A stretch of DNA of 64,000 nucleotides from NCBI GenBank assembly GCA_024743275.1, contig JANSWW010000007.1:151162-215161 (forward strand), given 5' to 3'. The notes beneath the pieces are model-generated. The model made no database searches. It was not told the origin of the DNA and saw only the letters and a program-made list of their open reading frames with translations. Position 1 is the stretch's first letter; each line of letters starts with the position of its first letter. The position numbers and the translations under genes are program-made. The stretch comes from Alphaproteobacteria bacterium. Lineage in GTDB: Bacteria > Pseudomonadota > Alphaproteobacteria > JANSWW01. Below, piece after piece: positions 2,664 to 55,585 of this stretch.

Positions 2664-3998
2664 TCAGGCCAGCGCGGTCTTGCTCGGGCGGGAGCGGAAC
2701 AGGATCAGGGCGATGATCCCCATATTGGCGAAGTTCCACAGGATGCCGTTGATGAAGGCGAGCTGATAGCTGCCGGTCAGATCGAAGACCAGGCCCGAGA
2801 GCCAGCCGCCCAGCGCCATCCCGATCACGGTCGCCATCATGACCAGGCCGATCCGCTGGCCCGCCTCGCGCGCCGGGAGGTATTCCCGGATGACCACGGC
2901 ATAGCTCGGCACGATCCCGCCCTGGGACAGGCCGAAAATCAGGCTGACCACATAGAGCGAGACCAGCCCGTCGAAGGGGATGTAGAGGAACAGCGCCATG
3001 CATTGCAGGGCGGAGCCGAGCAGCAGCGTCTTCACCCCGCCGATATGGTCGGCCAGAAGGCCGAACAGCAGCCGGCTCGCGACACCGCCGGCCAGCATCA
3101 GCGAGAGCATCTCCGCGCCCACCGCCACGCCATAGCCGAGATCGGCGCAATAGGCGACGATATGGACCTGGGGCATCGACATGGCGACACAGCAGGCGAC
3201 GCCGGCGAAGATCAGCAGCCATTGCAGCATGGCGGGCGATAGGCCGGCGTTGACCGCGGGGGATTCCATCGCCGCCTTCACCTTCTCGTCGGTCTCGGTC
3301 AGATGCGGCGCCTTGCGCAGCAGGAACAGCGACAGCGGAATCATGGTGACCAGGGTGATCACCCCGATCATCTCATAGGCCGCCCGCCAGCCCTCGGCGT
3401 CGATGGCGTCGCGCAGGAAGATCGGCCAGACCACCCCGGCGAGATAGTTGCCGCTGGCCCCGGCGGCGATCGCGATGCCGCGGCGCTTCTTGAACCAATG
3501 GGAGATATCGGCGACCAGCGGGCCGAAGCCCGCGGCCGTTCCCAGGCCGATCAGGACTCCCTGACAGACCGACAGGAACCAAAGACTCTCCGCGCCCGCG
3601 GCCAGGAAATGGCCGCCGCTGATCATGAGGCTGGCGAGGATCAGCACCGGGGTGACCCCGAACCGGTCGACAAGATGCCCCATCGCCACATTGCCGAAGG
3701 CGAAACCGAGCATGGTGGCGGTGTAGGCGAGCGAGGCTTCCGCCCGGGTGGTGCCGAAATCCTGCTCGACGCTGGGCATCGCCAGGATGATCGCCCACAT
3801 GCCGACGCTGCCGATCGTGGCCACGGTCAGCGACATGCACAGCCGGAACCACGCATAGGGGCTGTCCAGAACGGCGCTGGGGTCGCCGGCGTGCCGATGG
3901 GGCTGTCCTGGGTCGGCGGTCACGAAGGGCCTTCTGTCGCAAGGAGTTGATGAAAGTCTTGGGAAAGTTGTCTTTGATCCCGTGAGGATCAGAGCCAT
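2664..3998 (-). CDS. MFS transporter (12-TM, oxalate/formate antiporter-like); start codon uncertain, could be as far in as 3836
   Basis: Long hydrophobic ORF with MFS-like helices and a central loop containing KKRRG. The N-terminal ~50 aa are non-hydrophobic, so an internal Met (MSLTVAT...) is an alternative start. Confidence 0.6.
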
Positions 3999-4552: not shown

Positions 4553-5250
4553 GGGCCAGCCCGAGCCTGAACCACCTCACCGATCTGGTCCTGTATCGCG
4601 ACGGGCTCGTCCTCGTTCTCAACAAGCCCGCCGGCATCCCGGTCCATGCGGGTCGTGCCGGCGGCCCCAATCTGGAAGATGGCTTTCCCAGCCTGACCTA
4701 CGGCATTCGCCATGTCCCGGCCCTGGCCCATCGGCTCGACCGGGACACAAGCGGCTGCCTGGCCCTCGGCCGGCATCCCAAGGCGCTCAAGAAGCTCGGT
4801 AAGCTGTTCCGCGAGGGGCGGGCCGAAAAGACCTATTGGGCCCTGGTCCGGGGCGTGCCGGTGCGCGAGAGCGGCGTCATCGACGCGCCCCTGCTCAAGG
4901 TCAACCGACGGACCGGCTGGACCGTGAAGGTCGATCCCGCGGGCAAGGCCGCCCGGACCCGTTGGACGCTGAAGGGCAGCCGTGACGGCATCAGCTTTAT
5001 CGAATGCCATCCGGAAACCGGCCGGACCCATCAGATCCGGGTTCATCTCGCCCATCTCGGACTGCCGATCCTGGGCGACGTCGCCTATGGCGGGAATGCA
5101 TCCGACGGGCCCCTGGCGCTGCACGCCCGGCGGCTGGTCCTCCCGCTTGCCGCCTCCAAGCCGACGGTCGACGTCACGGCCCCGCCGCCGGAGGCTTTTG
5201 CAATTAGAGCAACCACGGTTCTCTCAGGCATAGTATTGCGAGAGTTTTAG
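4528..5250 (+). CDS. RluA-family RNA pseudouridine synthase (no S4 domain); TTG start; the 3' end runs into the low-GC insertion
   Basis: [14 protein letters not shown] catalytic-Asp motif plus [12 protein letters not shown]. The last ~15 codons are AT-rich, unlike the rest of the gene. Confidence 0.75.
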
Positions 5251-7133
5251 GTTTTAAATAAGTCTTCTATATCATCATCAATACTAGAATTATCGCGTAT
5301 TTCTTTTTGGCACCAGTGTCTGACTGAATTCATTTCCTTATGGAAATTGTCGTTTATATCTTTGAACGCGCCCTCACAGTCAACCAGAATTCTCTCGATC
5401 TCGTTGTATAACTCTTCGTCAGATTCCGATAGTTCTTGTATATCTTCGCATCGAATCTTGCAGGCGCTATCCGAAAAACTGATTGTGATAGTTAACGGTT
5501 CATCGGACTGACCACGTTCCTGGTAATGATGGACGCTTTTGGCCGTTTGCTTGAGAAATTCGTGGAATATTTTTCCACTGTATGCTTGATATTGTTTCTT
5601 TCCAGAAATTCGAGATGCTATATGCAGAAGTGAGAATAGTTCATCATCAAATGAAAAAGACGTTATGCCTGTGTCTTTTCCAAATTCTTCAAAACAAATT
5701 GTAAATTGTAACTTGCTAAGTGCGTAATAAGGTTTTTCTGGGTTGCGTGATCTGCTGATAGGTTTGAGGTGCTTCTCGAATTGAGGTTCAACAAATTTTT
5801 TTACGAAAAGGGGGGGATTCATGGAGTAGCAGAATTTTGGAAAATCATCGAAATAGCGGTTTTTGAGCCTCTCCATGAATTTATCAATATGTTGGTTCTG
5901 ATAATAAATAAGTCCATATGCTGCAAAATACTCTTGAAAAGATCGGTGTAAAAATGTAAAATATTTTCCATCGCGCTGTATTAAATTGACGGACTCTGAA
6001 AAATCTCTAAGCGTTTTTTGTGGATCAACGTCTATTTTTGCAATTTTATTAGACTTCTGAATTGTTTCTAGAATATCTACCTCGGTAAATTCAATTCTCT
6101 GTTCCATATATGAAACTAGTGAAAAAACCGAGAAAGCATTCCTAAAAACATGAAAATCGAGTTCATTCACCTTCGTAAATTTTTCTTTCGTGCTGTTGTG
6201 CCAATTATAAAGCGCGATAAACGCATGATCATAAAAAATGTTTAGGCTATCAGATATAGTGCCAGTATCGCTAAATGTTAGGAGCATCATCATTGTGAGA
6301 AGTGGAGTTGACATAAGGCTTTTTTTACTCGAAAAGTCCTTTTTCATTATTTCTTTGAGAAATTCTCTTTTTGTTTTTTCGTGAAATGGTAGCTTTTCGA
6401 TTAAACTAATATTTTGATCTAAATTAAGTTTGCAACACTCGAATCCATTAAAGCCCGACCAAGAGTTGAATCTTTGATTCAGCCTACTTGATACGATGAA
6501 TCGACATTTTTGGAATTCACTTGAAATTTCAATAATTTCGTTTTCAACTCTGTGCTTCTTGTCTTCAACAATCTCGTCAAATCCATCTAGAATAAAAGTG
6601 AATTTTCCTATTCCCATTAGATGGCGAAATGTATCCTCATCTAGTTTACCGCTCTCAGATATTGTGGTGCGTGCTAGTGTAACCAACCCTGATCCTAGTG
6701 TATTTTCTGTTGAGAGATTATTGAGCATCCTCAGTTCAAGGAATATGGGAATTGTGTTTGTTTCTTCTAAAATTACATTCCATAAAAACCTCATGAATAT
6801 CGTTTTTCCTGCCCCACCATTTCCTTGTATTATGACGTTTTTGTTTTTTAGAATCTCATTTATAATTTCAGAGTCTGGGAGAATTGTGTCATTATTTTTG
6901 AAATTCAGGGGTATGTATATTTCATTAAGGCCTACATCGGAGTCTTTCTTTAAAAGTATTTTGATTTTGGTCGTCTTATTCTTGGTTCTTGCAACATAAG
7001 GCTTGAAGTCTTCAAATGCGGCAGTCCATTTTTTTCTAATTGTGGGCTGTAAATGAAGTGTAATTCGATTCCAGAGCTCCTTTACGGTTTCTATGGTTAA
7101 CTCAGCTGTATATTTTTCTGCGGAGAAGCTCAT
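5247..7133 (-). CDS. NACHT-clade STAND NTPase (bacterial NLR-like protein); candidate antiphage defence protein
   Basis: Walker A IIQGNGGAGKT and Walker B FTFILDGFDEI (the hhhhDGhDE NACHT signature), sensor-1 RFIVSSR, and STPLLTMMML (GxP-like NACHT motif). The ~95-aa N-terminal region and ~330-aa C-terminal region have no recognisable domain. An AAGGA Shine-Dalgarno sequence lies 11 nt upstream of the ATG. Confidence 0.8.
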   Translation of the reverse strand: MSFSAEKYTAELTIETVKELWNRITLHLQPTIRKKWTAAFEDFKPYVARTKNKTTKIKILLKKDSDVGLNEIYIPLNFKNNDTILPDSEIINEILKNKNVIIQGNGGAGKTIFMRFLWNVILEETNTIPIFLELRMLNNLSTENTLGSGLVTLARTTISESGKLDEDTFRHLMGIGKFTFILDGFDEIVEDKKHRVENEIIEISSEFQKCRFIVSSRLNQRFNSWSGFNGFECCKLNLDQNISLIEKLPFHEKTKREFLKEIMKKDFSSKKSLMSTPLLTMMMLLTFSDTGTISDSLNIFYDHAFIALYNWHNSTKEKFTKVNELDFHVFRNAFSVFSLVSYMEQRIEFTEVDILETIQKSNKIAKIDVDPQKTLRDFSESVNLIQRDGKYFTFLHRSFQEYFAAYGLIYYQNQHIDKFMERLKNRYFDDFPKFCYSMNPPLFVKKFVEPQFEKHLKPISRSRNPEKPYYALSKLQFTICFEEFGKDTGITSFSFDDELFSLLHIASRISGKKQYQAYSGKIFHEFLKQTAKSVHHYQERGQSDEPLTITISFSDSACKIRCEDIQELSESDEELYNEIERILVDCEGAFKDINDNFHKEMNSVRHWCQKEIRDNSSIDDDIEDLFKT

Positions 7134-42377: not shown

Positions 42378-43367
42378 ATGCCCCAAGGGACCAAGCCCGT
42401 CGTTGTCGTGACCCGCCGTCTGCCCGACGTGATCGAAACCCGCATGATGGAGCTGTTCGATGCCCGGCTCAATCTCGAGGACAACCCGATGACGCCGGCC
42501 GAGCTGATCGAGGCGGTCAAGACGGCGGAGATCCTGGTCCCCACCGTGACCGACCGGATCGATGCCCGGGTCCTGTCCCAGGCCGGCCCCCAGCTCAAGC
42601 TGATCGCCAGCTTCGGCACCGGGGTCGACCATATCGACCTGGCCACGGCCCGGCAGCGGAACATCACCGTGACCAACACGCCGGGCGTCCTGACCGAGGA
42701 CACGGCGGATATGACCATGGCGCTGATCCTCGCCGTCTCCCGCCGACTGTCCGAGGGCGAGCGGCTGGTGCGCGCCGGGGACTGGAAGGGCTGGAGCCCG
42801 ACCGCGATGCTCGGACACCGGATCTACGGCAAGCGGCTCGGGATCGTCGGCATGGGCCGGATCGGTCAGGCGCTGGCCCGCCGGGCCCGCGGGTTCGGTC
42901 TTTCGGTCCACTATCACAACCGCCGCCGGGTCCATCCGGATCTGGAGAAGGAGCTCGAGGCGACCTATTGGGAAAGCCTCGATCAGATGCTCGCCCGGAT
43001 GGACATCGTCTCGGTGAACTGCCCGCACACGCCGGCGACCTATCACCTCCTGTCGTCCCGGCGTCTCCAACTGCTGCGCAAGGAGGCGATCCTGGTGAAC
43101 ACCTCGCGTGGCGAGGTGGTGGACGAGATCGCCCTGACCAAGGCGCTGCAGAACGGTCAACTGGCCGGGGCCGGCCTGGACGTCTTCGAGCACGAGCCGG
43201 CGATCAATCCGAAGCTGATGGCGCTGGATAATGTGGTTTTGCTGCCGCATATGGGCTCGGCGACCATCGAGGGCCGGATCGATATGGGCGAGAAGGTGAT
43301 CATCAACATCAAGACCTTCGTCGACGGACACACGCCGCCGGACCGCGTTCTGGAGCAAATGTTCTAG
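42378..43367 (+). CDS. D-isomer-specific 2-hydroxyacid dehydrogenase (glyoxylate/hydroxypyruvate reductase-like)
   Basis: GIVGMGRIGQALARR NAD motif; catalytic R/E/H arrangement. Confidence 0.85.
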   Translation: MPQGTKPVVVVTRRLPDVIETRMMELFDARLNLEDNPMTPAELIEAVKTAEILVPTVTDRIDARVLSQAGPQLKLIASFGTGVDHIDLATARQRNITVTNTPGVLTEDTADMTMALILAVSRRLSEGERLVRAGDWKGWSPTAMLGHRIYGKRLGIVGMGRIGQALARRARGFGLSVHYHNRRRVHPDLEKELEATYWESLDQMLARMDIVSVNCPHTPATYHLLSSRRLQLLRKEAILVNTSRGEVVDEIALTKALQNGQLAGAGLDVFEHEPAINPKLMALDNVVLLPHMGSATIEGRIDMGEKVIINIKTFVDGHTPPDRVLEQMF

Positions 43368-43391
43368 GGAGCAGATGTTCTAGGGAGCGGC

Positions 43392-47851: not shown

Positions 47852-48649
47852 TCAGATCTTGCGGGCGGAATGAACGGCCGCGATCCCGCCGGAGAGATTG
47901 CGCACCTTGCCCAGGCTGAGCCCGGCCGCCCGCATCCGGTCGAGCAGTTCGTCCTGGTCCGGGAAGCGGCGGATGCTCTCCACCAGATATTGGTAGGCGT
48001 CCCGATTCTTGGCGACGATCTCGCCGATCTTCGGGAGCAGGGTGAAGGAGTAGCTGTCATAGACCCGGTCGAAACCCGGGACCACCACATGGGAAAACTC
48101 CAGACAGAAGAACCGCCCGCCCGGTTTCAGGACCCGGGCGGCTTCACGCAGCGCCGCGTCGATATCGGTGACGTTCCTCAGCCCGAATGAGATCGTGTAG
48201 GTGTCCATGCTGTTGGAGCGGATCGGGAGGTTCTGGGCGTCGCCGTGAATCCAGTCGATCCCCTCGAAATAGCCCTTGTCGATCGCCTTGTCCCGGCCCT
48301 GGGCGAGCATCTCGTAGGAATAGTCGACAACGGTGACCGGGCCGCCGCCGCGTTCCTTCCAGCCGAAGGTGATATCGCCTGTTCCGCCGGCGACGTCGAT
48401 CAGATGCTGGTTGGGCCGGGGATGGATCCAGTCGAGGAAGGCGCGCTTCCACAGACGATGCACACCCATCGACATGATGTCGTTCATCAGATCGTAATTC
48501 GACGCCACATCGTCGAATACGCCCTGCACCAGTTTCGGCTTTTCGCGCCGGCCGACCCTGGTGAAGCCGAAATCGACGGCGTCGTCGTCCCGGGCGCCGG
48601 TCTCTGGGGCGCCGGTCTCTGGGGCTCTGGTGGGGTCGGAGACGGTCAT
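47852..48649 (-). CDS. ubiE: Ubiquinone/menaquinone biosynthesis C-methyltransferase UbiE
   Basis: [19 protein letters not shown] and [11 protein letters not shown] motifs; start set at MTVSDPT; a 15-bp in-frame duplication (APETG x2) lies near the N-terminus. Confidence 0.85.
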
Positions 48650-48788
48650 GGGGGCTCCCGGACGGCGGTCGTGACGATTGCGGATTGCGTTCCTCCTATT
48701 TAGCGTGTGGCTCTCGTCGCGCAAAGCGGCAGTTCGAAGCGACCCGGTACCGATGCCACTATCCATGCTCCTTCTCTCTTCCCCCGGC

Positions 48789-48918
48789 TCGTATTCCCCC
48801 GGCTCGTATTCCCCCGGATCGTATTCCCCCGGATCGTATTCCTCGGGCTCGTATTCCTCGGGCTCGTATTCCTCGGGCTCGTATTCCTCGGGCTCGTATT
48901 CCCCCGGGGCCTATTTCC
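48789..48918. repeat. 15-bp tandem repeat array, 8 full + 1 partial copies in three variants (cccccggctcgtatt x2, cccccggatcgtatt x2, cctcgggctcgtatt x4), abutting the mutM ATG
   Basis: Read directly; located in the ubiE/mutM divergent intergenic region. Confidence 0.9.
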
Positions 48919-49749
48919 ATGCCTGAACTGCCGGAAGTCGAAACCGTCTGTCGCGGCCTCGATCCGGTTCTGACGGGCCAGGTCCTGGCCCGGGTGCTGC
49001 AGAGGCGTCCCGATCTGCGCTTTCCCCTGCCGGAAGGCTTCGCCAAGCGGTTGACCGGCCGCCGCGTGCTCGGTCTCCGGCGGCGGGCGAAATACATCCT
49101 GATGGATCTGGACGGGGGGCTCAGTCTGATCGCCCATCTCGGCATGTCGGGCCGCATGCAGATCTTCGAGCGGATGCCGGACGCATTGGGGACCCATGAC
49201 CACATCGTCTTCGAAACGGCCGCCGGGCCCACCGTCCTCTATAACGACGCGCGCCGATTCGGGATGATGGACCTATGGCCGACGGAGGCGCTGGAGGATC
49301 ATCCCTGGCTGGCGGCCCTTGGCCCGGAGCCCCTGTCCAACGCGTTCAACGGTCCCGCCCTGGCGGAGGCGCTCGCCGGGAAGAGGACCCCGATCAAGGC
49401 CGCCCTGCTCGACCAGCGTGTGGTCGCCGGGCTCGGCAATATCTATGTCTGCGAGGCCCTGTTCGAGTCCGGCCTCTCGCCGCGGCGGCTGGCGGCGACG
49501 GTCCAGGGCGGACGGGCGGAGAAGTTGGCGGCGTCGGTCAAGGACGTCCTTGGCCGGGCCATTGCGGCGGGCGGCTCCAGCCTGCGCGACTACCGACAGG
49601 CGGACGGCGAACTCGGCTATTTCCAGCACAGCTTTTCGGTTTACGGCCGCGAGGGGGAGCCCTGTCCGGGCTGCACCTGTGATAAGACGGTGCAGCGGAT
49701 CGTCCAGTCGGGTCGGTCCACCTTCTTTTGCCCGAAACGCCAGCGTTAG
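48919..49749 (+). CDS. mutM: Formamidopyrimidine-DNA glycosylase
   Basis: MPELPEVE N-terminus (catalytic Pro2) and C-terminal zinc finger [27 protein letters not shown]. Confidence 0.9.
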
Positions 49750-51088: not shown

Positions 51089-51352
51089 ATGGCCAACATC
51101 AAGTCCGCGCAGAAGCGCATCCGTCAGACCGAGCGCCGCAACGCGATCAACACCGCGCGCAAGAGCCGCATCCGCACCTTCGTCAAGAAGGTCGAAAAGG
51201 CCTTGGCCGCCGGCGACAAGGAAGCCGCGATGAGCGCCTTCAAGGATGCCCAGCCGGAACTGCAGCGCGGCGTCACCAAGGGCGTTCTGCACAAGAACAC
51301 CGTGGCCCGGAAGATTTCGCGGATGAACGCCGCCATCAAGGCGCTGGCCTGA
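51089..51352 (+). CDS. rpsT: 30S ribosomal protein S20
   Basis: [26 protein letters not shown]... Confidence 0.9.
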
Positions 51353-51796
51353 TTTTCTCCGCCCCGGGAAAAGTATGACAGTTTGGTGAAAGCCGTCCGA
51401 ACCGGGCGGCTTTTTCATTTTTGTGTCATCTCAATTGTTTAGCCGCAGACCAGGATTCTTTTTTGGGTGTTCCCCTTTCGGTCCTGTTGCGAGCGGTCGC
51501 GGGCTCACTTAGCATCAGGCTCCTTCATTGGTCGCTGGCAGTCTTTTGACGGTTTCGGCGCGGCGAATTTGCTAATTATGAAGATAAAACAGAGTGCTTT
51601 GCCAGTTGAAGGCGGCAGGTTGTCGATGACTGTATCTCGGTAATTTGTTGTTTTCTCTCTCGCACATCGGTTTGTGGGCTAACGACGCTGGGAAAACTGG
51701 CGCACCCTGGTTATTTACTTGAGATGCGGGAGAATTCTTGCCTCGTAATGTGTGGGAGCACGGGGTCGGAAAGACGTTTCGTTGTGGGGGGAGTTG
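51353..51796. other. rpsT-dnaA intergenic region (~445 bp) with an AT-rich segment (~51560-51600); dnaA promoter and possible oriC/DUE region
   Basis: Location immediately upstream of dnaA; locally AT-rich; only degenerate TGTGG-containing DnaA-box-like matches were seen. Confidence 0.3.
51392..51422 (+). terminator. Rho-independent terminator of rpsT (gccgtcc-gaacc-gggcggc + T-tract)
   Basis: 7-bp GC-rich stem (one G-U pair), 5-nt loop, followed by tttttcattttt. Confidence 0.55.
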
Positions 51797-53254
51797 ATGA
51801 ACCTATCACAGTTGCGGGCTGAGCAGGGTAGCGAGACAGTCGACCGGGACGGCGCGTGGGCGCGGGTCCGCGGACAGCTTCGCAAAGAAGCCGGAGAGAC
51901 TGTTTTTCAGCAGTGGCTGAAGGGCCTCACCCTGGAGCGTGTCGACGGCGATCTGGCCGTGTTCTCGGTGCCCGGCAAGTTCATGCGCGAATGGATTGAC
52001 ACGAACTACGCCGACCTGCTGCGGTCCTGTTGGCGCCATGAGACCGGCGGGGCCGTGACCGACGTCCGCATCGATGTCGGAGATCCCTCGGCGCGCAAAT
52101 CCGATGGGGCGGGCGATGTCCAGTCCGGTTCCCACTCCGGTTCCCACTCCGGGTCCCTGTCCGACACGGGGGACTCCGTGGCCACGCCGAAATCTGTCCG
52201 GGGGAGCGGTTTCTCCGAGAGTGGGGACGATCTGTGCGCCAACTTGGACACGCGCCTCGGCTTCGACAATTTCGTCGTCGGCAAGCCAAACGAATTCGCC
52301 TTCGCGGCGGCCCGCCGGGTTTCCGAAAGCACGGAAGTCACCTTCAACCCGCTGTTCCTTTATGGCGGCGTCGGTCTCGGCAAGACCCATCTGATGCATG
52401 CCATCGCGCTCGATATTCGCCGCCGGCAGCCGGAGCGAAAAGTGGTCTACATGTCCGCCGAGAAGTTCATGTACCACTTCATCCGGGCACTGCGGTTCAA
52501 GGACACGGTGGCGTTCAAGGAGCGGTTCCGGAATGTCGACGTGCTGATGATCGACGATGTCCAGTTCATCAGCGGCAAGGAATCGACCCAGGAGGAGTTC
52601 TTCCACACCTTCAACACGCTGGTGGACTCCAACCGCCAGGTCGTCGTCTCCGCCGACAAATCGCCCCATGACCTCGAAGGCATGGAAGAGCGGCTGCGCT
52701 CACGCCTCGGTTGGGGTCTGGTCGCCGACATCCATCCCACGACCTATGAACTGCGCCTCGGGATCCTTCAATCCAAGGTCGACAAGATGGGGGCCGACGT
52801 GCCCGAGAAGGTTCAGGAGTTCCTCGCCCACAAGATCACTCAGAATGTCCGGGCGCTGGAGGGGGCGTTGCACCGTCTCGTCGCCCATGCGGAATTGGTC
52901 GGGCGGCCGGTAACCCTGGAGAGCACCCAGGAAATCCTCGGCGATTTGCTGCGGGCGAGCGACCGCCGGGTGACCATCGAGGAAATCCAGAAGCGGGTGG
53001 CCGAGCATTTCAACATTCGGATGTCCGACATGGCCTCGGCCCGCCGCTCCCGCTCGGTGGCCCGCCCGCGTCAGATCGCCATGTATCTCTCCAAGCAGCT
53101 GACCAGCCGGTCCCTGCCGGATATCGGCCGCCGGTTCGGCGGGCGCGACCACACCACCGTGATGCATGCGGTGAAAAAGGTCGAGGAGTTGCGGGCCTCC
53201 GACGTGTCCTTCGCCGAGGACGTCGACATCCTCCGCCGCATGCTGGAGAGCTAG
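51797..53254 (+). CDS. dnaA: Chromosomal replication initiator DnaA
   Basis: Walker A LFLYGGVGLGKTHL; domain IV DNA-binding helix; ATG at 51797 preferred over the upstream in-frame start; the linker contains an SGSHSGSHSGS repeat. Confidence 0.9.
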   Translation: MNLSQLRAEQGSETVDRDGAWARVRGQLRKEAGETVFQQWLKGLTLERVDGDLAVFSVPGKFMREWIDTNYADLLRSCWRHETGGAVTDVRIDVGDPSARKSDGAGDVQSGSHSGSHSGSLSDTGDSVATPKSVRGSGFSESGDDLCANLDTRLGFDNFVVGKPNEFAFAAARRVSESTEVTFNPLFLYGGVGLGKTHLMHAIALDIRRRQPERKVVYMSAEKFMYHFIRALRFKDTVAFKERFRNVDVLMIDDVQFISGKESTQEEFFHTFNTLVDSNRQVVVSADKSPHDLEGMEERLRSRLGWGLVADIHPTTYELRLGILQSKVDKMGADVPEKVQEFLAHKITQNVRALEGALHRLVAHAELVGRPVTLESTQEILGDLLRASDRRVTIEEIQKRVAEHFNIRMSDMASARRSRSVARPRQIAMYLSKQLTSRSLPDIGRRFGGRDHTTVMHAVKKVEELRASDVSFAEDVDILRRMLES

Positions 53255-54570: not shown

Positions 54571-55524
54571 ATGCTTAGTGGCATGCGGCATCTTCCCAAT
54601 CTCAATGCGGTCCGCGCCTTCGACGCCGCCGCCCGCCATGGCAGTTTCGCCGCCGCAGCGGCGGAGCTGGGGGTTAGTCATGCGGCGGTCAGCCGGCATG
54701 TCCGTAATCTCGAAAGGGAACTGGGCGTCGAACTCTTCGAGCGCCATGCCCGGCATGTGGTGTTGACCGGTGAGGGCGGTTTCTTCGCCAAGACCGTGGC
54801 CGAATCCCTGTCGTCTCTCGAACTGGGGTCCGGTCGGGTGCGGCGGCGGGGTGGCCGCACCACCGTCGTGATCGACATCGAATCCGACTTGGCGATGCGC
54901 TGGCTCATGCCGCTGATGTCGGACGCGGTTCTGGCAGCGCTCGGCGTCCATCTCGATCTGCGTGTCCGCCCGGACCCGCCGCGGCATATTCTGCCCGATG
55001 CGGACATCACCCTGTCCTGGGGACCGGTGACCGCCATGGGATTCAAGACGTCGCCCTTCCTTGATTTCACGGTCTTCCCGGTTGCCGCGCCGGCGCTGCT
55101 GGCCAACGGTCCCGAGCCGAGTGGCCCGATTGATCCGAGTGGCCCGGTCGATCCGGCGTTCTTCCGGACCCATCGGATGATCCATGAGCGGGGCATCTAC
55201 TGGTGGCAGCGCTATTGCGCGGCGATCGGCATGCGGCTGGAGGAGGCAGGCGGCCACCTCTATGTCAACCGCTCCTATCTCAGCATCGATGCGGCAGTGA
55301 GGGGGCTCGGCGTAGCCATGGGGGACAACGCGATCTGCCGCGCCGACTTGGCGGCGGGTCGGCTGGTTCGGGTCCCGGGCCCGACCCTCTCCAGCCGGGA
55401 GAAGTACTACTTGGTCGTCCCGGAACGGGTGCTGTCCCGACCGGTGCAGAGGGTGATCGACTGGCTCACCGCCGAAGCGGTCGCGGTCCCCCTCGCCCCG
55501 CTGCCCGGTGCCGCGGACGCCTGA
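54571..55524 (+). CDS. LysR-family transcriptional regulator (divergent from the MFS gene)
   Basis: N-terminal HTH LNAVRAFDAAARHGSFAAAAAELGVSHAAVSRHVRNLE. Confidence 0.85.
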   Translation: MLSGMRHLPNLNAVRAFDAAARHGSFAAAAAELGVSHAAVSRHVRNLERELGVELFERHARHVVLTGEGGFFAKTVAESLSSLELGSGRVRRRGGRTTVVIDIESDLAMRWLMPLMSDAVLAALGVHLDLRVRPDPPRHILPDADITLSWGPVTAMGFKTSPFLDFTVFPVAAPALLANGPEPSGPIDPSGPVDPAFFRTHRMIHERGIYWWQRYCAAIGMRLEEAGGHLYVNRSYLSIDAAVRGLGVAMGDNAICRADLAAGRLVRVPGPTLSSREKYYLVVPERVLSRPVQRVIDWLTAEAVAVPLAPLPGAADA

Positions 55525-55568
55525 CCGCCTGACCGCCTAACCGCCTGACCGCCTAACCGCCTGACCGC
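55521..55568. repeat. 8-bp tandem repeat x6 (ctRaccgc), starting at the LysR stop codon and giving TGA/TAA stops in all three forward frames
   Basis: Read directly. Confidence 0.85.
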
Positions 55569-55585
55569 CGGTCGCGTCCGGGTGA

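Follow-up and report, generated by a model that had tools for sequence, protein, structure and literature searches.

The locus lies in a window of 64,000 nucleotides (the whole stretch of DNA that was analysed, hereafter the 64-kb window), where mutM and ubiE are arranged divergently on either side of a spacer that holds a 15-bp tandem array (Table 1). Both gene calls of the earlier note were confirmed by profile searches, mutM by the Fpg equivalog NF002211 (345 bits) and ubiE by TIGR01934 (268 bits). UbiB is encoded by the next gene beyond ubiE. The divergent ubiE-mutM layout was found in 68 of the 86 loci examined, mostly with a very short spacer, and this arrangement is ancient. The wider gene order coaBC-ubiB-ubiE / mutM-hypothetical-echA-rpsT-dnaA is kept in two of the relatives, referred to here as L083 and L085; rpsT and dnaA lie 1.3–2 kb downstream of mutM (51089–53254), and no clear GC-skew turn was seen within the 64-kb window.

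The 276-aa MutM is identical to the NCBI protein MCR9256639.1 (276 aa; MAG contig of 257,830 bp), and an exact look-up of the protein returned a sole match, a Logan unitig of 1.8 kb whose first bases lie within the array. Among the matches listed, the best GTDB matches showed 67–69% identity, with the MPELPEVE start being ubiquitous, and the named relatives nearest by MutM were Azospirillum, Thalassospira and Inquilinus (67–71%), which makes the source an uncultured alphaproteobacterium of Rhodospirillales-like affinity. The catalytic residues are invariant, and comparison with the closest relative found (L082) gave a dN/dS of 0.098 at a dS of 0.287. From these sequence comparisons, mutM is intact and under purifying selection, and MutM looks functional.

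At the C-terminus of MutM (49660–49749), the zinc finger reads CPGCTC...FFCPKRQR, i.e. CxxCxC...C as opposed to the usual CxxC...CxxC. The same form is shared by Azospirillum-type relatives, and CP(R)CQR is retained in Thalassospira-type relatives; the form found here places the zinc ligands of Fpg in an alternative way. A defective MutM, with the fourth zinc-finger Cys replaced by Arg, was ruled out, since CxxCxC...C is common to the Azospirillum-type relatives.

A frame is open from 48685 through the array and into mutM, in frame with the gene. Since Fpg uses its N-terminal proline and both the profile, which starts at residue 1 of the 276-aa product, and the NCBI annotation (276 aa) place the start at 48919, an extension of MutM through the array (PPARI..., 354-aa ORF) was rejected. 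In exact-protein look-ups, neither the 354-aa extended MutM ORF nor the 265-aa and 304-aa versions of UbiE were on record.

Structure of the array upstream of mutM

Tandem Repeats Finder (TRF), run on the 64-kb window, reported a period-15 array at 48779–48907 with 8.6 copies, 94% matches, no indels and a score of 188; the runner-up tandem array in the window scored 101. A 15-mer search resolved the array into nine units in exact 15-nt register (48779–48913), in the order A2 B2 C4 D1, and found no further in-register copies elsewhere in the 64-kb window. The identical 15-bp family was recovered at this site by a separate repeat search, which detected no inverted repeats there. At up to 3 mismatches, the unit had 11 matches window-wide, 9 of them contiguous, compared to 3.5 ± 1.7 in shuffled sequences, none of which (0/100) reached 11.

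Thus, the array of three 15-bp variants arranged 2+2+4 that the earlier note had described is real, and it lies, as claimed, in the divergent ubiE/mutM intergenic region abutting the mutM start. The last repeat does run into the mutM ATG, with TTTCC separating unit D from the ATG at 48919, so that the array ends 5 nt before the start codon. The start given previously has to be corrected: it had been placed at 48789, which falls 10 nt inside the array because a rotated unit phase had been used, and the true start is 48779.

Table 1 Features of the ubiE-mutM locus and other tandem arrays of the window
Feature	Position	Strand	Basis or remark
16-bp array (x2.3), after the 2-hydroxyacid dehydrogenase gene	43352–43388		
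ubiE, divergent neighbour of mutM	47852–48649	-	TIGR01934, 268 bits; ATG 48649, start as called in L082
Second 15-bp repeat, in frame, ubiE N-terminus, APETG x2.3	48592–48625	-	TRF
Sole conserved block of the spacer among the four closest loci, TGACGATTGCGG ... CTATTTAGCGTGTGG	48672–48710		Spacer alignment
Putative uORF through the array, MLLLS(SPGSY)4(SSGSY)4SPGAYFHA*	48765–48926	+	TGA overlaps the mutM start (ATGCCTGA)
Whole array, nine units	48779–48913	+	TRF, 15-mer unit table, separate repeat search
Variant A, TTCCCCCGGCTCGTA x2	48779–48808	+	15-mer search
Variant B, TTCCCCCGGATCGTA x2	48809–48838	+	One C>A change compared with variant A
Variant C, TTCCTCGGGCTCGTA x4	48839–48898	+	60-bp perfect run
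Degenerate unit D, TTCCCCCGGGGCCTA (48899–48913), plus TTTCC tail	48899–48918	+	Aligned to tttccccgtcgcgta-tttcc-ATG of L082
mutM/fpg, 276 aa, N-terminus Met-Pro-Glu-Leu-Pro-Glu-Val-Glu	48919–49749	+	NF002211
14/27-bp array, after dnaA	53250–53310		
8-bp array (x6.5), CGCCTGAC, after the LysR regulator gene	55518–55569		

Variant A is the nearest to the single unit of L082, with 3 differences in 15 positions. Unit D departs furthest from the consensus of the array (3 mismatches). Aligned with L082, unit D and its TTTCC tail are the native sequence just 5′ of the mutM start. No clear Shine-Dalgarno sequence was present in 48899–48918, directly ahead of that start. The array is 68% pyrimidine, and its A2/B2/C4 blocks are compatible with duplication unit by unit, in agreement with the stepwise duplication that had been proposed.

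The perfect run of variant C is the part of the array most prone to slippage and to assembly error, and the exact number of C units is that of a single metagenome assembly. The sequence comes from a MAG contig, the k=31 Logan unitig from run SRR18498044 breaks inside the C block, and the perfect periodic run of ~68 bp is ambiguous for k-mers shorter than ~55. It could therefore be argued that, in an otherwise real array, the copy number is an assembly estimate, with the four C units collapsed or expanded during short-read metagenome assembly. We consider this quite unlikely, as variants A, B and D anchor both array ends and the length differs from that of L082 by a whole multiple of 15; moreover, an error of this kind would affect the number of C units only and not the existence of the array. 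The right-hand junction is independently supported, since the Logan unitig (1.8 kb) is identical there, with 100% identity over 1766 bp.

Comparison with relatives

The closest relative found, L082, is a 1.6-kb ENA contig with a MutM of 95% amino acid identity and 90–91.5% nucleotide identity. It spans the spacer and carries one copy of the unit at the same place (tttccccgtcgcgta, then tttcc and the ATG), with a TTTCC on either side of the unit at a spacing of 15 nt. The mutM ATG is 36 nt away from the shared CCATGCTCC motif in L082 and 156 nt away from it here, which is 120 nt (8 x 15) farther. Copy-number change, as the earlier note had anticipated, has thus taken place over evolutionary time, with 9 units here and 1 in L082 (exactly 8 units), in a comparison of two genomes that are species-level relatives at ~91% nucleotide identity.

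No array was present in the spacers of L083 (78%; 75 bp) and L085 (76%; 106 bp). Another contig, L086, with a UbiE homologue 90% identical over the core, has a C-rich spacer and no array up to the contig end, ~135 nt into the spacer, and has no bearing on copy number. Likewise, none of 80 GTDB alphaproteobacterial loci had a comparable array upstream of mutM. The two-unit array pattern was absent from the JGI metagenomes and the IMG/VR viral contigs, and the flank at the mutM start had no match in the JGI metagenomes. The collections searched contained no second assembly or allele of the source species, and a literature search on the run, analysis and protein accessions found nothing. Since the unit is single-copy in L082, while L083, L085 and the 80 GTDB loci are without the array, it is a young, lineage-specific expansion of a sequence that is single-copy in the sister lineage.

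Position of the array in the spacer

The only block of the spacer conserved in the four closest loci (Table 1) has CTATTT on its plus strand and, on its minus strand, GCTAAAT, and both of these resemble alphaproteobacterial -10 elements. GCTAT-type boxes were enriched upstream of mutM on both strands across 84 loci, compared to 0–2 in coding controls, and the box k-mers of these loci were GCTAT-like on both strands, as expected of a compact divergent spacer. Because the whole L083 spacer is only 75 bp, the block would hold or overlap both core promoters, and we infer that it is a shared or back-to-back core promoter of ubiE and mutM.

Between this block and the start codon of mutM there are 34 nt in L083, 67 nt in L085, 97 nt in L082 and 217 nt here. 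As it is located downstream of the only conserved promoter-like block, the array probably lengthens the mutM leader; it would probably be transcribed as part of the mutM 5′ leader and lie ahead of the core promoter of ubiE. This position argues against two earlier proposals. The array was expected to re-space the mutM promoter; it lies beyond, not inside, 48672–48710, and a lengthened leader is more likely. A possible effect on ubiE is not favoured either, given that the array is at least ~50 bp upstream of the putative ubiE core promoter. A scan of 48300–49300, limited to E. coli-type sigma-70 promoters and terminators, detected none.

Outside the array, the spacer is ~9–14% divergent compared to a pS of 24%. 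It is more conserved than synonymous sites and the region is therefore regulatory, so an insertion of 120 nt in it might not be innocuous.

Folding of the array was no better than that of shuffled sequences (RNA z = 0.42, DNA z = +1.79), and Rfam gave no match at the gathering score, the best one (E = 0.96) being a chance match. Thus, neither fold stability nor Rfam indicated a structured RNA leader or riboswitch at the array. The C5 tracts that recur every 15 nt (G5 on the minus strand) might still form a G-quadruplex or i-motif, or the units might offer a regulator a series of repeated binding sites. Units A, B and D together contain five C5 runs, and four G3 runs are present in the C units. 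However, the loops of 10–12 nt are long for stable quadruplexes, the shuffles revealed no excess of secondary structure, the single unit of L082 leaves no conserved array of sites, and a 15-bp period does not fit helical phasing. A structural or protein-binding role is therefore barely credible.

The open frame through the array

An open frame with an ATG start runs through the array and terminates in a TGA that overlaps the mutM start (Table 1). If translated, such a uORF could couple the translation of MutM, which is without a clear Shine-Dalgarno sequence, to that of the repeat peptide. In L082 the frame is kept with its start and stop, at a length of 13 aa, and the five variable positions of the unit all fall at codon positions 1 and 3. 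Nevertheless, the codon-position pattern would arise by chance with a probability of ~0.13 per frame, and, with no stop codon in any of the six frames of the unit, an open frame is what chance would give. No Shine-Dalgarno sequence precedes the ATG at 48765, L083 and L085 have no counterpart, and the peptide had no family match in the profile search. Furthermore, the CCT at codon 2 of mutM, from which the TGA arises, is present in 26 of 86 relatives whether or not they have a uORF. A ribosome-binding site together with a peptide conserved in the relatives, as looked for in a uORF or leader peptide, was not found. The frame is probably not a gene, and we regard translational coupling through it as highly improbable.

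With respect to codon 2 of mutM in the 86 loci, Pro2 is encoded by CCT in 30%, compared to 9% of other Pro codons, and by CCG in 15%, compared to 47%. The CCT enrichment is probably a general start-region composition effect; it was dropped as support for the coupling, as it is general to alphaproteobacterial mutM genes.

Tandem arrays elsewhere in the window

At a TRF score of at least 60, the window contains 9 non-overlapping arrays, about five times the 1.7 per 64 kb found in 685 kb of syntenic DNA from 80 relatives; the Poisson probability of at least 9 arrays is ~6e-5. From this excess, small tandem duplications would seem to arise at an elevated rate in this lineage. On a GC3-based gene map, all 8 within-gene arrays had periods of 12, 15 or 18, while arrays with periods that are not multiples of 3 (8, 11 and 16) and the 14/27-bp array were found outside genes only. 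Three arrays, after the 2-hydroxyacid dehydrogenase gene, dnaA and the LysR regulator gene, have the stop codon of the preceding gene as their exact starting point, with each unit repeating the stop; these are probably a filter for harmless positions at work. Taken together, the pattern is the signature of a high background of small duplications filtered by purifying selection, with the mutM array as its largest survivor.

The second 15-bp repeat of the locus, at the N-terminus of ubiE, has 3.3 copies in L082 (about 487–535); at the same place in L085 another 15-mer is present in 4 copies (2820–2879). The N-terminal tail of UbiE is variable in length within the group.

Two further observations were made. 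In the relative L005 (MAG bin.58, MutM 69% identical), a perfect 14-bp array of 4.9 copies lies between ubiE and ubiB (2971–3039) and repeats the start-codon region of ubiB (GATGATCCGCTCCC, coding strand), giving several out-of-frame ATGs. In the 64-kb window, a low-GC island on the minus strand (5247–7133; GC 0.48 compared to 0.64) carries the gene of a 628-aa NTPase with a NACHT domain (PF05729, E = 3e-7); the island was probably acquired horizontally, and its product is possibly a defence-type STAND ATPase.

Discussion

We consider it likely that the array is a near-neutral VNTR, or minisatellite, which was generated by slippage and lengthens the mutM leader; its neutrality is suggested by the pattern of the sequences. 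It consists of head-to-tail 15-bp units, differs from L082 by whole units and is confined to a single locus, as judged from the 64-kb window, the JGI metagenomes and the viral contigs. Many small arrays of the window occupy harmless positions, which speaks for a mutational process that acts generally and not for a device specific to this locus. On the other hand, no other array of the window comes close to the mutM array in size, and its location is at a repair gene.

Its origin may be pictured as follows. A 15-nt piece just upstream of mutM, flanked by TTCC/TTTCC microhomology, would have been duplicated by replication slippage or unequal exchange, the TTTCC...TTTCC microhomology as seen in L082 being the obvious substrate of the first slippage. 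The array would then have grown by single units, leaving the blocks of identical neighbours A2, B2 and C4, with an older and more diverged unit left beside the mutM ATG. Unit D may be this oldest copy, because no other unit departs further from the array consensus. As a result, 120 nt of presumably unstructured, pyrimidine-rich RNA would have been added to the mutM 5′ leader, a placement suggested by the comparative conservation of the spacer. MutM may still be made because the copy adjacent to the ATG keeps the native initiation context, and the array may persist because insertions at its position are tolerated. Its copy number would be expected to drift, and its effect on mutM expression, if any, is probably modest and incidental.

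Such an array resembles the intergenic VNTR/MLVA loci, e.g. MIRU-VNTR of M. tuberculosis, with head-to-tail units of 10–100 bp in a spacer, a single locus, a copy number that differs between related genomes, and an origin by slippage or unequal exchange. MIRU units are, however, 40–100 bp compared to 15 bp here, and copy number here was compared between two genomes.

The earlier note had proposed a heritable switch on 8-oxoG repair. Gain or loss of units would alter the length of the mutM leader or the spacing of its elements, and hence set a heritable and reversible level of MutM and an 8-oxoG-driven mutation rate. We think this unlikely, although several points can be listed in its favour, including the change of eight units since the split from L082 and the 60-bp perfect run, which is slippage-prone in principle. 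There is also a speculative precedent: H. influenzae F3043 has (ATTA)9 at 225 bp upstream of mutM, where other strains have 3 copies (PMC2651432). As here, the repeat is upstream of mutM and was expanded in one lineage (9 compared to 3 copies there, 9 compared to 1 here), and in both cases a link to mutation rate has been put forward as a hypothesis.

Tandem repeats in the promoters of M. tuberculosis (dop, lpdA, cysG-efpA) vary in isogenic populations at 1e-2 to 1e-3, which could also be taken as support for a switch; their 54–58-bp units each carry a promoter, so that copy number changes promoter dosage (PMC12817950). These arrays likewise lie near a start codon (12–29 bp there, 5 bp here) and vary in copy number across lineages (PMC12817950). 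Nevertheless, the 15-bp unit is too short for a -35 and a -10 element, and the sigma-70-type scan found no promoter consensus in it, so that the array shares with them the proximity to a start codon and not a promoter in every unit. In addition, variation was measured within populations in M. tuberculosis, whereas the comparison here is between species.

The 15-bp unit, its impurity and its position are at odds with the classic definition of a contingency locus. The contingency loci of Haemophilus and Neisseria are built from pure units of 1–8 nt, in ORFs or between promoter hexamers, whereas the unit here is 15 nt long, comes in three variants plus a degenerate copy (94% matches) and lies in a probable leader. 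A shift of frame or of -35/-10 spacing is not expected either, as the array is outside the ORF, its unit is a multiple of 3, and the scan found no hexamer pair around it. Moreover, the array is one of many in harmless positions, and no second allele of the species was present in the collections searched.

In non-typeable H. influenzae, pure 7-bp repeats lie between the promoter and the start codon of the adhesin genes hmw1A and hmw2A, and expression that is graded, not on/off, has been shown experimentally. There, as would be the case here, repeat number sets the length of the leader; the differences are the shorter, pure unit, the adhesin gene and the experimental demonstration of an effect on expression. 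In E. coli, loss of MutM alone gives a weak mutator phenotype, and the pay-off of a switch would therefore be small. A slippage-driven rheostat in the mutM leader, i.e. a mutator contingency locus made from a 15-bp minisatellite instead of a simple-sequence tract, is in our view very unlikely. If the array did tune MutM, a base-excision repair gene would be under repeat control in a free-living bacterium, which is rarely seen, and the idea of an evolvable mutation rate would become testable at a defined locus.

On the preferred reading of a near-neutral VNTR, the array has consequences of a practical kind, as it breaks short-read assemblies and, being in frame with mutM, could cause gene callers to predict a non-functional Fpg with an N-terminal extension. 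Above all, it is a clean example of the birth of a minisatellite, in which one 15-nt segment with 4-nt microhomology has given rise to nine copies in a sister lineage, in a duplication-prone genome that would keep small tandem arrays only where they are harmless.
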